Source of the DNA: a virus | Taxonomy: Duplodnaviria > Heunggongvirae > Uroviricota > Caudoviricetes | Length of the DNA stretch: 15,576 nt | Direction: 5' to 3' (one strand) | Virus record (IMG/VR): IMGVR_UViG_2802429234_000006 | Notes under the pieces: generated by a model | Seen by the model: the letters and a program-made list of their open reading frames with translations, nothing else | Database searches by the model: none | What the model was told of the DNA's origin: nothing | In this document: positions 5,421 through 14,208 of the stretch, in pieces | How the letters are laid out: every line of letters begins with the position of its first letter | How positions within the stretch are numbered: the first letter of the stretch is position 1 | Program-made: the position numbers and the translations under genes

Positions 5421-5804
5421 TCAGGAACCCAGATGCAATTGAATATTCATCTGCTCAGCAACGTAGTAGATTTCTTCAGAAAGCATCAACAAAAAACCAA
5501 GAGAATCCCATCCTCTGTTACTGACTACAATTGTTCTTTTTTGGTAATTCCTGAATGCCTTACCATTGGGCTGATGTAATCCCATCCCGGCATGTGCCCG
5601 GCTGATGGTTTCGCGCATCTCCCCGAAATTATCCTGCCTTGCCGGTAGGCGTGCTGCCTTGCGTATACATTCCGCGCGACGTTTTGCCGCCTGTTCCCGT
5701 GCTTTGTCATCATTCGCCAGCATGATGACCTCAGCCCATCGCTCCGCCGCTCTCCGGTACAGGCCACGCGCTTCCAGTGCTTCCGCTTTACTGTCGCGTA
5801 TCAT
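5421..5804 (-). CDS. PerC-family-like transcriptional regulator (127 aa)
   Basis: ATG at 5804 with AAGGAGG 10 nt upstream and an ATGA overlap with the preceding ORF. N-terminal KAEALEARGLYRRAAERWAEV resembles the conserved N-terminal motif of PerC/Pch-type activators as I recall it; not confirmed by search. Confidence 0.5.
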   Translation of the reverse strand: MIRDSKAEALEARGLYRRAAERWAEVIMLANDDKAREQAAKRRAECIRKAARLPARQDNFGEMRETISRAHAGMGLHQPNGKAFRNYQKRTIVVSNRGWDSLGFLLMLSEEIYYVAEQMNIQLHLGS

Positions 5805-6049
5805 GCGCTTTTTCCCTCCTTCATGGCCTTACGCTGGCGCTTGTGCTTCTCATTCAGCGCCATCAGCCGCGTTTCTGCGTCCTGTTGTTCCTGTGGTGTC
5901 ACCTCGCCGCATGGCTGGCCTTTCAGGTCGTAACGCACTCCACCAGCAACCAGAGCGCGGTAATAGCGCGGAGACTGCGCATAAGATGCCAGCGTCGCAC
6001 GTAATGCCCTTAGCCCGAATGCCAGCCCCCTGACGGCGATATCCTGCAT
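5801..6049 (-). CDS. Hypothetical small protein (about 82 aa from the ATG at 6049; the track extends to a GTG at 6160)
   Basis: Stop overlaps the PerC-like start (ATGA). GC-rich region with overlapping alternative frames, so the start is uncertain. Confidence 0.35.
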   Translation of the reverse strand: MQDIAVRGLAFGLRALRATLASYAQSPRYYRALVAGGVRYDLKGQPCGEVTPQEQQDAETRLMALNEKHKRQRKAMKEGKSA

Positions 6050-6117
6050 CAGGTCGTCGAATATCCCCCACCTTAAGCGGCTTCGGTGCTTCCCGGCTGA
6101 ATAATTCAGGCCACAAC

Positions 6118-6342
6118 TCAGTGGCGGTTTTTGCGCTGCCGTTTGGTCATATGCCGCCACGGTGTCGCCCCTGTGGGCTTCTGCTGCACTTTCTGGTTAC
6201 CGGGCATCACTTTATGCGCCGATGTGGTTTTATCCTGCTCCTGTGCCGACTGCGTCGTTTTCTGCGTCGTGCCGAAAATGCCTTTTGGCTTTCTGTTAAT
6301 GGTCAGCTTTGTCATGCTCTTCCCCATCATTGTTGCCGTCAT
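6118..6342 (-). CDS. Hypothetical small basic protein (74 aa)
   Basis: Hydrophilic, Lys/Arg/Thr/Gln-rich ORF just downstream of the putative origin. No clear SD at the first ATG; an internal ATG has GGGAAGAG upstream. Competing plus-strand frames are Cys-rich and look non-coding. Confidence 0.25.
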   Translation of the reverse strand: MTATMMGKSMTKLTINRKPKGIFGTTQKTTQSAQEQDKTTSAHKVMPGNQKVQQKPTGATPWRHMTKRQRKNRH

Positions 6343-10629: not shown

Positions 10630-11478
10630 TTACACATGGCTGTTTTCCTCCATGCGACGGGCTAACCAACGCTGCGAAAGGCGAATTAATTCAGCTTTCC
10701 GCTGGTGGTAGTCCTGGCCTAACTCAATCAGCGTGATATTGCTCTGCTCAAGGTAAGAAAGGTGCTCAAGCTGCAACGTGCTCATGTGGTCGCGTGGTTC
10801 GCCTGTGATGCCGTTCGCCAGTGCCCACTGTTTTGCAGTCATGCCACCCAGCACGATACGCGCCAGCATATTGGCTTCCGTGGTGTAATGGTGCTGTAGA
10901 GTGTTTTTACCCAGTTCAGCCCGGTACGCCTCCAGCGCGGCACACATTGGCTTAAAGTAGCTGGCAACTGTGATACGGGCTTTCAGTTCCCGGCGTAACG
11001 CTGCGGAACGTACAGGCGCAACCTTGTGTAGCTCTTCCTCGCATTTGATGAAGTACTGACGAACGGCGCGCCCCTGTTCGGTGCGTTCGACCATCGCCAG
11101 TTCTTTCGCCATGTTCGTGGAGATCAAATAGTCTTCACTGCGGCGATCACCGCCGCGCTTTGTTGTCCAATCAGAATCAAACTGTTCAATATTTACACTT
11201 TGGTTCCCCCGTTTCGGGGAATCAAAGTACAAATTTTCTACAACTTCAAAATCCACGCCATTTTTAAATCCGTACTCATCAATACGTCCTTTAATCCAGG
11301 TAGTGAAATCACGGCCTACCCCGAGCGCCTTATGCAACGCTCTGGCGCTAACAATATTGGTTTCACGCCCGCCAATAACGCCGGAAATAACCGGGATAAT
11401 TTCACCAAAATTTTGCAGATTCTGGTTTTCAGGTCGAATGAAGCCCTGCCCCTGTACGGGCGTTTTTCGCAGTTTCAT
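10630..11478 (-). CDS. Phage antirepressor-like protein (282 aa; AntA/Rha/KilA-type regulatory domains)
   Basis: ATG at 11478 with GGAG 7 nt upstream. Segments ARALHKALGVGRDFTTWIKGRI and ISTNMAKELAMVERTEQGRAVRQYFIKCEEEL resemble conserved blocks of phage antirepressor / Rha-family proteins as I recall them. Confidence 0.65.
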   Translation of the reverse strand: MKLRKTPVQGQGFIRPENQNLQNFGEIIPVISGVIGGRETNIVSARALHKALGVGRDFTTWIKGRIDEYGFKNGVDFEVVENLYFDSPKRGNQSVNIEQFDSDWTTKRGGDRRSEDYLISTNMAKELAMVERTEQGRAVRQYFIKCEEELHKVAPVRSAALRRELKARITVASYFKPMCAALEAYRAELGKNTLQHHYTTEANMLARIVLGGMTAKQWALANGITGEPRDHMSTLQLEHLSYLEQSNITLIELGQDYHQRKAELIRLSQRWLARRMEENSHV

Positions 11479-11555: not shown

Positions 11556-11753
11556 TCAGGTAGCTGTTCCGCGTGATTCCGCAATACGCTGATTAATCCA
11601 CTCGTCAATTTCACTCTCAACGAAAGCAATCGCTCGCGAGCCAATTTTTACAGGTTTAGGAAAACGCCCTTGGGCAATGAGTTTATAGATCCATGCCCTG
11701 CCATAGCCTGTACGGCGCATGGTTTCTGGCATACGAATTAAAGATTGTGACAT
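11556..11753 (-). CDS. alpA: AlpA-family transcriptional regulator / excisionase-like HTH protein (65 aa)
   Basis: ATG at 11753 with GGGAG upstream (the track start at 11822 is a GTG and runs through the operators). Sequence MSQSLIRMPETMRRTGYGRAWIYKLIAQGRFPKPVKIGSRAIAFVESEIDEWI is characteristic of AlpA/Xis-type proteins. Confidence 0.8.
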   Translation of the reverse strand: MSQSLIRMPETMRRTGYGRAWIYKLIAQGRFPKPVKIGSRAIAFVESEIDEWINQRIAESRGTAT

Positions 11754-11760
11754 GATAATC

Positions 11761-11793
11761 GTCTCCCGTTGTTTATTGATGCCTACGGGAGAC
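11761..11793 (-). promoter_or_regulatory. Leader hairpin (8-bp inverted repeat GTCTCCCG / CGGGAGAC with a 17-nt loop) that includes the alpA Shine-Dalgarno sequence
   Basis: Inverted repeat at 11761-11768 and 11786-11793. On the minus-strand mRNA the downstream arm contains GGGAG, the SD of alpA. Confidence 0.35.
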
Positions 11794-11820
11794 ATTGAAG
11801 CAGGTAAGACATTGGATATC

Positions 11821-11855
11821 ACCGCAATTGCGGTGAATGATACCGCAATTGCGGT
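11821..11855. promoter_or_regulatory. Tandem pair of perfect 14-bp palindromes ACCGCAATTGCGGT (operator-like), centres 21 bp apart
   Basis: Identical copies at 11821-11834 and 11842-11855, each perfectly self-complementary, in the interval between the 251-aa gene stop and the alpA start. Confidence 0.5.
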
Positions 11856-11867
11856 ATAGGACTAGAA

Positions 11868-12623: not shown

Positions 12624-12751
12624 TCTGTGCTACCTCGCACCCTCTGTAAAAGTGGCTGTGCCAGCCCGCAGAGGTGTACGGGTTTTCAGGAGCGACCCTA
12701 GACACAGCCTTTTCTTAATCGCTCAAAGTCTACTACTGTATACTCAACCAG

Positions 12752-13966
12752 TCACCCGCATTTTCCGAACTCACCATGCACCACATTTCCGCCATGCTCG
12801 AGCGAATCCATATAGTCGGCATACCACTGGAGCATCTCCCGGCGACCATCCAGATATTGCGCATGGTTGTATGTGCCACGAATTGAGTTTTTATCGACGT
12901 GTGCAAGCTGTGTCTCTATCCACGCGGTGTTATAGCCCTGCTCATGCAAAATGGTGCTCATGGTGTGCCGGAATCCATGACCAGTAACCTTTCCGTTATA
13001 GCCGATGCGTTTAAATACTTGGTTTATGCTAGCCTCGCTCATTGTTTTCCTTGGATCATTACGGCCGGGAAACATAAGCGGATAATTGCCAGTTAATTCT
13101 TTAATCTGCCCAATAAGAGAAAGAGCCTGCTTAGACAAAGGCACCACATGAGGGCGACGCATTTTCATCCGTGAAGCAGGTATCTCCCAGATAGCCTTGT
13201 TGAGATCGATTTCATCCCATAATGCACCGCGCAGTTCGCCAGTCCGCAAACCGGTGATAATCAGTAGACGAGCCGCCATAACAACCAATGCACTTCCTGA
13301 GTAACTGGACAATGCCTTGAAAAAATCAGGTAATTCTTTGGCTGTGAGGAAAGGATAATGATTAGATTCATGACCTTGCATCGCGCTGGTGAGATCCGGT
13401 GCAGGGTTATACTCAGCACGTCCAGTGACAATTGCATAGCGGAAAACTTCCCCGCATCGCTGCCTCACTTTTTTGGCTTTTTCGGTAGCACCGCGCCCCT
13501 CGATACGCCGCAGCACATTCAGCAGTTCAAGTGGTTTGATTTCGGCGATTGGTTTTTTGCCAATGTAAGGGAACACATCTTTGTTGAAGGCTTCGAGGAT
13601 GTCTGAAGCATAACCAGCAGACCATTTTTTTAATTTGCTGCTGTGCCACTCAATGGCAATATCTTTGAAGGTGTTGTTTAACTGCGTTTCCCGGGCAATC
13701 TTTTCCTCTCGTTTCGCTTCCATCGGATCGATACCCCCAGCGATACTCCTTTTAGCTTCTTCACGTTTTGCACGAGCATCAGCCAAGGTAACTTCAGGAT
13801 ACACACCTAGTGCTAACAGCTTCTCTTTACCAGCTACACGATACTTGAAGCGCCAATATTTTCCTCCACTAGGTTTTACCAAGAGATACAGACCACCACC
13901 ATCAGCCAGCTTGTAAGCCTTCTCTTTTGGCTTGGCAGTGTCTATTTGACGGGCATTGAGTTTCAC
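12752..13966 (-). CDS. int: Tyrosine site-specific integrase, P4 / CP4-57 IntA family (404 aa)
   Basis: N-terminal pattern AKPKEKAYKLADGGGLYLLVKPSGGKYWRFKY and C-terminal catalytic region HGFRHT...RGTYNHAQY typical of P4-type integrases. GTG start at 13966 with GGAGG 9 nt upstream. Lies next to and co-oriented with a tRNA gene. Confidence 0.9.
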   Translation of the reverse strand: MKLNARQIDTAKPKEKAYKLADGGGLYLLVKPSGGKYWRFKYRVAGKEKLLALGVYPEVTLADARAKREEAKRSIAGGIDPMEAKREEKIARETQLNNTFKDIAIEWHSSKLKKWSAGYASDILEAFNKDVFPYIGKKPIAEIKPLELLNVLRRIEGRGATEKAKKVRQRCGEVFRYAIVTGRAEYNPAPDLTSAMQGHESNHYPFLTAKELPDFFKALSSYSGSALVVMAARLLIITGLRTGELRGALWDEIDLNKAIWEIPASRMKMRRPHVVPLSKQALSLIGQIKELTGNYPLMFPGRNDPRKTMSEASINQVFKRIGYNGKVTGHGFRHTMSTILHEQGYNTAWIETQLAHVDKNSIRGTYNHAQYLDGRREMLQWYADYMDSLEHGGNVVHGEFGKCG

Positions 13967-14132: not shown

Positions 14133-14208
14133 TGGTGCCGATAATAGGAGTCGAACCTACGACCTTCGCATTACGAATGCGCTGCTCTACCAACTGAGCT
14201 ATATCGGC
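14133..14208 (-). tRNA. thrW: tRNA-Thr (anticodon CGU), thrW-type; integration target of the element
   Basis: Minus-strand sequence GCCGATATAGCTCAGTTGGTAGAGCAGCGCATTCGTAATGCGAAGGTCGTAGGTTCGACTCCTATTATCGGCACCA folds as a canonical cloverleaf: 7-bp acceptor stem, D-arm GCTC/GAGC, anticodon loop TTCGTAA, T-loop TTCGACT, encoded CCA. Confidence 0.92.

Follow-up and report, generated by a model that had tools for sequence, protein, structure and literature searches.

The closest described relative of the locus presented here is the BisR/PalpA node of ICEclc, an integrative and conjugative element (ICE) from Pseudomonas knackmussii B13. BisR is a 251-aa protein with three predicted domains and no Pfam domains, the prototype of a new regulator family, and it is required for ICEclc transfer (PMC7423338). 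In P. putida free of the ICE, BisR alone is enough to express a single-copy PalpA-egfp fusion very strongly, and PalpA is silent when BisR is absent (PMC7423338). The number of cells that commit to ICE transfer is set by BisR. Published BisR homologues span 43-100% identity. Transcript mapping in ICEclc found read-through from orf101284 into orf100952 under some conditions, together with a separate 0.5-kb transcript of orf100952 only, and left the PalpA start unmapped (PMC2892462). The ICEclc literature that was searched describes no BisR binding site or operator; the palindromes mentioned there are BisD and BisC sites. In Gram-negative phage-inducible chromosomal islands (PICIs), alpA expression is the induction step and AlpA the master activator (PMC6092414, PMC11773190). 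Here we describe the alpA leader of an island carried on a 15,576-nt stretch of DNA (the window; IMG/VR record IMGVR_UViG_2802429234_000006) and propose that its two tandem palindromes are probably the operators of a BisR-like protein encoded directly upstream.

The leader, 11754-11867 on the minus strand, is the entire spacer between alpA and the stop codon of a co-oriented open reading frame (ORF) of 251 aa. It contains two exact matches to ACCGCAATTGCGGT whose starts are 21 bp apart, and both are cores of perfect 18-bp palindromes, each with its own symmetric flanks. A scan of the window allowing up to three mismatches returned one further ACCGCAATTGCGGT-like match, with 3 mismatches. Because shuffled sequences give 0.9 matches even at that threshold, two exact copies 21 bp apart are not a chance occurrence. 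The promoter-distal copy (O1) starts 10 bp past the stop codon of the bisR-like gene. The first-pass annotation had reported two identical 14-mer palindromes at this distance and had taken the region to be the control point of alpA. The first claim is confirmed and the second supported: the copies are exact and extend further than reported, and the region is the whole spacer before alpA, with a layout that recurs in relatives.

By homology and gene order, the 251-aa protein is a BisR homologue. It shares with BisR a length of about 251 aa, the lack of a Pfam domain and three predicted domains, and it has no NCBIfam, PHROG or PADLOC family match either. Its AlphaFold2 model (predicted local distance difference test score 82) shows an N-domain, one 60-residue helix and a three-helix C-domain. 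Homologues number 706, with a near-constant length of about 252 aa, and occur in Entero-, Gamma- and Betaproteobacteria; within the species collection, Escherichia ruysiae has the closest genome, with 100% identity for this protein. The assignment was made through synteny-defined orthologues (39-48% identity) of ICEclc BisR (AJ617740 orf101284). The Acidovorax orthologue P0237 aligns over nearly its full length (39% identity over 240 aa, E 1e-55), and its gene order, X-alpA-parA-(82 aa)-(551 aa)-DUF2857-...-ssb-topoisomerase, matches the bisR-alpA-parA-shi-bisD-bisC(DUF2857)...ssb core of ICEclc-family elements (as in PMC7423338). Loci of the form LysR-X-alpA-parA are 41-48% identical to the window protein in the best tblastn segment. 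In the more distant loci a LysR gene flanks the family gene and alpA and parA follow it; LysR is its direct neighbour in the ICE-type loci L164, L169 and L174. The gene lies immediately upstream of alpA and in the same orientation in the window and in 50 of 56 homologous loci. The P0237 spacer has the same layout as the window, with CTGCAATTGCAG and CTGCCGTTGCGG 21 bp apart, then TATTGAAT, then a hairpin at the Shine-Dalgarno (SD) sequence.

Many members of this family carry other names in public databases. BisR homologues (P0002-P0021, P0138, P0146, P0172 and others) are named 'protein kinase', 'Receptor protein-tyrosine kinase' or 'ATP-binding protein', and no kinase or ATP-binding domain is detectable in them, so these names look like propagated misannotation. 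A defence system was also considered as the role of the gene in the slot between int and alpA and was rejected, there being no PADLOC match.

The association of gene, palindromes and alpA was followed in 56 homologous loci, taken from one-genome-per-species contigs of Beta- and Gammaproteobacteria. For each locus the best tandem pair in the 122 nt past the homologous gene was scored against the 99th percentile of 2009 control windows. Nearly all full-length cases carry a tandem pair of dyad-symmetric 14-mers just past the stop codon of the homologue. The pair exceeds the control percentile in 36 of the 56 loci, where it starts 0-20 bp past that stop codon; of these, 31 have a spacing of 21 bp and the other 5 one of 20 bp, and the control windows have no preferred spacing. 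An AlpA-like ORF follows, starting about 90-125 nt past the stop of the family gene in 50 of the 56 loci. The same layout was found in Klebsiella and in locus L193. The palindrome sequence itself varies, with types that include ACCGCAAYTGCGGT, ACCCCAATTGGGGT, ACCCTAGTTAGGGT, ACTGCAATTGCAGT, ACCGAATTCGGT, TTGTGAACTCACAA, CTAATTAG and ACGGTAATTACC. Because the 21-bp spacing is kept across phyla, the palindromes look like the sites of a dimeric DNA-binding protein on one face of the helix.

A third cassette context is found in marine/environmental Gammaproteobacteria (L186:6665-10679, L129:3001-5692), where a P4-type int is followed by the bisR-like gene, alpA, the gene of a 157-166-aa HTH_17 protein and then another tyrosine recombinase. 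The cassette of L186 has defence-like cargo (PLD-helicase, HNH) downstream of it.

The protein that reads these sites is suggested by the way they vary. The N-domain and coil of the BisR-like protein are kept in all loci, the N-domain, putatively not DNA-binding, being very conserved. The C-domain is either a variant of '...GKPG-I-S-x-R-T-L-E-x-K-F-A-E-A' or wholly replaced, and the palindrome type changes alongside; whole C-domain replacements accompany the new palindromes ACCGAATTCGGT, TTGTGAACTCACAA, CTAATTAG and ACGGTAATTACC. Over 33 loci, half-site similarity follows C-domain identity (Spearman 0.745; partial 0.749 given N-domain and AlpA identity; permutation p 0.0005) and is independent of AlpA identity (Spearman 0.16; partial -0.18, p 0.997); for N-domain identity the values are 0.01 and, as a partial correlation, -0.07. 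Individual loci dissociate in the same sense. AlpA is 80% identical between L129 and L152, which have different sites and unrelated C-domains, and L126 and L134 have a site in common with AlpAs that are 11% identical. Overall, sites can differ where the AlpAs are 80-84% identical and be the same where they are 10-14% identical. The E. coli island L005 encodes an AlpA with a nearly identical helix-turn-helix (HTH; 61/65 residues), yet it has neither such palindromes nor the gene.

The association extends to single residues. Among loci with the canonical C-domain, Arg236 occurs with G at half-site position 4 (25/25 loci), and Thr, Ser or Ala at 236 with C at that position (7/7 loci, from lineages of the Burkholderiales, the Halomonadaceae and enterobacteria). 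At residue 239, all 18 loci with Glu or Gln have C at position 3, and 13 of the 14 with Trp, Ala or Asp have a non-C base (T or A). Fisher tests give p values of 3e-7 for residue 236 and 4e-8 for residue 239, uncorrected for phylogeny. A recognition helix would be expected to show such a pattern, in which residues i and i+3 of the last helix match adjacent bases. These observations point to the BisR-like protein as the probable reader of the palindromes.

The sequence between the palindromes and alpA is consistent with a promoter that depends on an activator. When 30 loci are anchored on the centre of the proximal site (O2), the sole conserved downstream signal is T-W-n-A-W-T at +29..+34, and positions +9 to +28 hold no information. 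In the window this signal is TTCAAT, with no -35-like element between it and O2; elsewhere it reads TGTAAT (Klebsiella), TCTAAT (L193) or TTGAAT (Acidovorax and ICE-type loci). With the hexamer read as a -10 element, the sites would be centred at about -40.5 (O2) and -61.5 (O1). Such positions without a -35 would be the geometry of an activator-dependent promoter, in agreement with BisR genetics. If the palindromes are operators of the BisR-like protein, it is thus rather likely to activate alpA here than to repress it.

A comparable arrangement is found with lambda CI at OR1-OR2/PRM and with class II (-41.5) activators such as CRP, which place dimers on adjacent dyads on one helix face. There, as here, the proximal site is centred near -41 and the -35 is poor or absent. 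Unlike those systems, the window protein has no detected HTH_3 or CRP fold, its sites are spaced 21 bp apart and not 24, and there is neither a divergent promoter nor any sign of repression from the sites.

Table 1. Coordinates of the predicted regulatory elements and neighbouring features in the window
Feature	Position	Strand	Description
bisR-like gene, 251 aa	11868..12623	-	ORF call; N-domain ~11-118, long helix/coiled coil 118-179, three-helix C-domain 183-250
O1, promoter-distal predicted operator	11840..11857, core 11842-11855	.	perfect 18-bp palindrome ATACCGCAATTGCGGTAT; counterpart kept in 36/56 loci
O2, promoter-proximal predicted operator	11819..11836, core 11821-11834	.	perfect 18-bp palindrome TCACCGCAATTGCGGTGA; 21-bp spacing conserved; half-site co-varies with C-domain residues 236 and 239
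-10-like hexamer TTCAAT, putative PalpA -10	11794..11799	-	exactly 21 nt past O2 core
Leader hairpin	11761..11793	-	mRNA 5' arm GUCUCCCGU (11785-11793), 15-nt loop, 3' arm ACGGGAGAC (11761-11769)
alpA, 65 aa, regulated gene	11556..11753	-	Pfam Phage_AlpA 1.1e-19, HTH_17
int/bisR-like spacer, presumed bisR-like promoter region	12624..12751	-	conserved in sister islands with a different slot gene (alignment)
P4-type tyrosine integrase	12752..13966	-	Pfam Arm-DNA-bind_3, Phage_int_M, Phage_integrase
tRNA-Thr, island insertion site beside proA	14133-14208		

The last element of the spacer is the hairpin over the alpA SD, which the first-pass annotation had described with 8-bp arms. The hairpin is real, and its arms measure 9 bp, listed in the sequence scan as GTCTCCCGT at 11761-11769 and ACGGGAGAC at 11785-11793. 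The SD, GGGAG (11763-11767), lies inside the mRNA 3' arm, 9 nt from the ATG. All subgroups have hairpins that take in the SD or the start codon, and the sequences of these differ. Across 18 aligned ICE-type leaders the consensus structure pairs 91.6% of cells, compared with 21-46% when partners are slid, and compensatory changes are seen at 3 hairpin pairs (GC<>AU, GC<>UA and AU<>GC). By comparative sequence analysis, the leader hairpin is a conserved structure. Its 5' base lies at +34..+40 in 15 of 29 loci, right after the hexamer, and in the enterobacterial group a start 7 nt past the hexamer would land inside the 5' arm. With low confidence, we suggest that this SD-masking hairpin keeps read-through RNA from the bisR-like gene translationally silent.

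Sequence features, homology, synteny, co-variation and conserved spacing were computed here, and the activation of PalpA by BisR is taken from the literature. From these we infer direct binding, activation in this island, the position of the transcription start and a role of the hairpin. The BisR-like protein would dimerise via its long central helix, and each dimer would use the last helix of its three-helix C-domain to read one palindrome, with Arg236 reading G at half-site position 4 and Glu239 reading C at position 3. Two dimers would sit on the same DNA face, 21 bp apart, upstream of the TTCAAT promoter without a -35. From there the protein would activate alpA transcription, like BisR at PalpA of ICEclc, and AlpA would then launch the excision and replication programme of the island. 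A transcript that reads through from the bisR-like gene would contain the SD-masking hairpin in full, and a promoter-initiated one would start at or inside the 5' arm of the hairpin.

Several observations weigh against this model or qualify it. Fold searches yielded no known DNA-binding fold for the 251-aa protein: Foldseek against the PDB gave no match below E = 2.8, with two weak excisionase/P2 DNA-binder matches at a probability of at most 0.08, and a profile search against PDB sequences returned coiled-coil noise only. Because the sequence coding for the C-domain adjoins the palindromes, some of the co-variation could reflect co-inheritance as one recombination block. The association of single residues and bases in several lineages argues against this, though the tests behind it ignore phylogeny. 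TTCAAT lacks the usual A at -11, which is absent in many loci, and the consensus sigma-70 promoter scan made no call in 11754-11867; the scan missed the hexamer because the A is lacking at position 2. In 7 loci the hexamer position belongs instead to a stem pairing with the start codon. Counting how many SD bases are paired in minimum free energy (MFE) folds does not discriminate alpA leaders (7.0/10) from 61 control genes (6.3/10). The call of an activator draws on homology (39-48% identity to synteny-defined orthologues) and geometry.

The rival that survives best is that the palindromes are repressor operators. A dimeric repressor, either the 251-aa island protein acting in the manner of Stl or a helper-phage or host protein, would block alpA by occlusion or as a roadblock, and induction would remove it. 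The first-pass annotation had proposed a cooperative dimeric repressor of this kind, with a helper-phage or host regulator as the possible binder. A dimeric binder remains likely given the conserved spacing, and cooperative repressors typically have tandem operators at a distance of two helical turns. With a co-transcribed gene on one side of the sites and alpA on the other, a protein bound there could block read-through, and bisR-alpA read-through in ICEclc is condition-dependent (PMC2892462). In addition, the diversification of operator specificity resembles phage immunity regions, and Gram-negative PICIs have been described with the repressor missing or 'unclear' (PMC6092414). However, the homologous BisR alone switches PalpA on, and PalpA is silent without it (PMC7423338). 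The sites, with inferred centres at about -40.5 and -61.5, would be clear of the sole conserved -10-like element and upstream of a putative promoter without a -35. Nor does the 251-aa protein have an HTH_3/Cro-CI or S24 peptidase domain, and its gene is co-oriented with alpA, not divergent. Repression from these sites is therefore unlikely.

The part of the repressor claim that names a phage or host binder is a misfit with the co-variation of the sites and the C-domain of an island protein. A blastn search of the 57-bp site region against 50,697 phage records found the tandem site in no cultured phage of the collection and gave only two unrelated partial matches (E = 5). An exact 14-mer scan of IMG/VR returned mostly single chance matches; the tandem pair was present on only two contigs, both copies of the island described here. 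On these searches, mimicry of a helper-phage operator was rejected, and the suggestion of a helper-phage or host regulator is not supported.

A further comparison is with SaPI (Staphylococcus aureus pathogenicity island) Stl and PICI Rpr. As in those systems, an island-encoded regulator beside int would control entry into excision and replication, and its specificity is highly diversified. In contrast, Stl and Rpr are divergent from the genes that they repress and are relieved by a phage protein (PMC6092414). The window gene is co-oriented with alpA, its product is an activator homologue, and its N-domain is very conserved rather than diverse.

A role in RNA is less probable still. As RNA the two palindrome copies can pair as a 14-bp stem with a 7-nt loop, or each can fold into its own small stem-loop, at the 3' end of the mRNA of the bisR-like gene, where they might restrict read-through into alpA by terminating, processing or stabilising the transcript. 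In the MFE fold of the leader the copies pair with each other (-43.4 kcal/mol), with a z score against shuffles of -6.0 with the palindromes and -2.8 without them. The first copy lies 0-20 nt past the stop in most loci, and the central AAYT varies in a loop-like manner while the 5-nt arms co-vary. Against this, there is no U-tract after either hairpin of the spacer, no terminator was called in 11754-11867, and Rfam gave 0 matches to the spacer at E <= 1. The strict two-turn spacing of 21 bp is unneeded for RNA pairing, and mismatches in imperfect sites show no G-U excess on the mRNA strand (29 G-U against 34 A-C). The arms also track residues 236 and 239, which RNA structure alone does not predict. 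Comparing complementarity within and between sites where the copies differ was uninformative (0.39 against 0.34), most differences lying in the flanks. We therefore give an RNA element little credence as the primary function, and such a role could coexist with operator function.

Autoregulation, in which AlpA itself binds the palindromes and activates (PICI) or dampens (ICEclc) its own promoter, is very improbable: AlpA activates its own promoter in EcCICFT073 and EcCIMP1 (PMC6092414, PMC11773190), may repress PalpA output in ICEclc (PMC7423338) and binds DNA, recognising an element inside promoters (PMC9371919), but the sites vary independently of AlpA, as the correlations, the dissociated loci and the near-identical AlpA of L005 indicate.

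The leader contains other motifs as well. A direct repeat, CAATGTCT on the mRNA strand, occurs at 11790-11797 and 11807-11814, 17 nt apart, between the proximal palindrome and the hairpin. Its second copy overlaps the -10-like hexamer and the hairpin 5' arm, and one possibility is that it is a candidate AlpA autoregulatory site. In the ICE-type leaders L151, L161, L165, L169, L170 and L189, a conserved 9-bp dyad, TATTSAATA, lies about 20-30 nt past the proximal site and overlaps the hexamer; it may simply be the promoter element, or else another site bound by protein, perhaps by BisDC or AlpA in feedback. At 11816-11826 on the plus strand, TATCACCGCAA sits at the edge of the proximal palindrome. 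It is identical to the left part of lambda OR3 and to the lambda consensus half-site TATCACCGC. The CACCG and CGGTG halves are 5 bp further apart here than in the lambda operators, and the likeness is probably a coincidence.

The element that carries this node is of another type than ICEclc. In order, it encodes an integrase, the 251-aa ORF, alpA, antA, small ORFs, DUF4222, a DUF927 primase, ProQ/FinO and PerC, with HTH_17 also among its ORFs. No consensus promoter was called in the spacer between int and the bisR-like gene. No ParA, ParB or DUF2857 protein was found among the window ORFs, nor in the annotated relative L001 (98.7% identical). In the ICEclc cascade, bisR is driven by TciR, an activator of LysR type; there is no LysR gene in the window, the gene upstream of the bisR-like gene being the integrase. 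Also, no packaging-related Pfam family was found among the window ORFs, several of which have no family at all. What the window shares with ICEclc is a Pfam-less 251-aa regulator with three predicted domains, co-oriented directly upstream of alpA (PMC7423338), and a matching spacer of about 110 nt between orf101284 and orf100952, as estimated from the ORF numbering. With the ICEclc-type orthologue P0237 it shares the 21-bp spacing of two palindromes, a -10-like hexamer and a hairpin at the SD. Unlike ICEclc, the island has no parA, shi, bisD, bisC (DUF2857) or LysR-type TciR; the BisDC feedback loop of the ICEclc switch is absent here because bisD and bisC are. It is not conjugative and is an int-alpA-antA-primase island of satellite or PICI-like type. 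The feature is, on present homology, a counterpart of the BisR-PalpA node outside the ICEclc regulatory constellation.

In its overall plan the island resembles Gram-negative PICIs. The genes int, alpA and pri-rep lie in one orientation at a tRNA/attB site, and, as in EcCICFT073 and EcCIMP1 (PMC6092414, PMC11773190), int and alpA are followed by a DUF927/primase replication module. Insertion at tRNA-Thr beside proA is shared with EcCIMP1, and PerC and antirepressor genes with Gram-negative PICIs. In these PICIs, however, the inducer of alpA is an unidentified helper-phage function (PMC6092414), whereas here it would be an island-encoded BisR-type factor with predicted operators. In EcCIMP1 (L185:18858-19284, E. 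coli MP1), int and alpA have no gene between them; the 427-bp spacer upstream of its alpA, which is helper-inducible, carries another inverted repeat, long and imperfect, AAAGACCGCAATATG...CATATTGTGGTCTTT. With neither the 251-aa gene nor the palindromes, EcCIMP1 was rejected as the same element. At 5421-6160, a PerC-family regulator and a ProQ/FinO-domain protein lie back to back, as in EcCIMP1-like elements; the EcCIMP1 PerC-like protein has been reported as a repressor of the locus of enterocyte effacement (LEE). The C-terminal part of the AntA-domain protein downstream of alpA (10630-11478) matches PDC-S22, a candidate-defence model of PADLOC (E 3e-9).

The spacer and the 251-aa ORF are present in 8 of 5426 complete E. 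coli genomes. About 196 share alpA/antA, with similarity ending at the alpA start. In sister islands, the int-proximal 125 nt are conserved and are followed by a non-homologous gene and a different repeat array before alpA, made of TACCCTnAGGGTA-type palindromes in 4-7 copies in one type and of AT-rich TTTAAAT-type repeats in another. Sister E. coli islands at tRNA-Gly carry these regions on the minus strand (L002:1850-2090, L003:1848-2095, L004:3355-3635, L005:3357-3475), and their slot genes encode a protein of 265 aa, one of 302 aa or a split pair of 106 + 147 aa that aligns with the two halves of the 265-aa protein. The BisR-like protein is not homologous to these slot genes (hhalign probability ~1%). 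Each slot gene and its repeat array may be an analogous regulator/operator cassette, and the occurrence of different slot genes with different repeats was the reason for testing the slot gene/repeat pairing. The alpA genes themselves are mosaic. Compared with the TACCCT-type islands (L002:1653-1850, L003:1651-1848), the window AlpA (11556-11753) has 14 differences, all in the first 34 residues (the HTH half), and the last 31 residues are identical. Because the differences are confined to the HTH half, a recombination breakpoint lies inside alpA.

Relative to the literature searched, the predicted operator, the candidate C-terminal reading head with its two-position code, the extensive and apparently orthogonal diversification of regulator and operator, and the presence of the module outside ICEs are new. 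The predicted operator is concrete: two dyads of 14-18 bp with a spacing of 21 bp, at about -40.5 and -61.5. From the way C-domains and sites have diversified, regulators are predicted to be orthogonal, a possible reason for the failure of ICEclc BisR to induce related P. aeruginosa ICEs (PMC13393423).

More broadly, and tentatively, BisR-type proteins may be a general, modular 'ignition' factor for AlpA-controlled ICEs, integrase-only islands and satellite-like islands. The N-domain and coiled coil would take a signal or contact RNA polymerase, and an exchangeable C-terminal reading head would match the adjacent tandem operators, giving orthogonal pairs so that co-resident islands do not cross-fire. 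In this doubtful but possible scheme, the module and the non-homologous slot genes of sister islands would link an inducing signal to alpA, and the hairpin would make only promoter-initiated alpA mRNA translatable. The occurrence of the module in int-alpA-primase islands of Escherichia, Klebsiella and L193 links the regulation of ICEs with that of satellites and bears on how alpA is switched in Gram-negative PICI-like elements.

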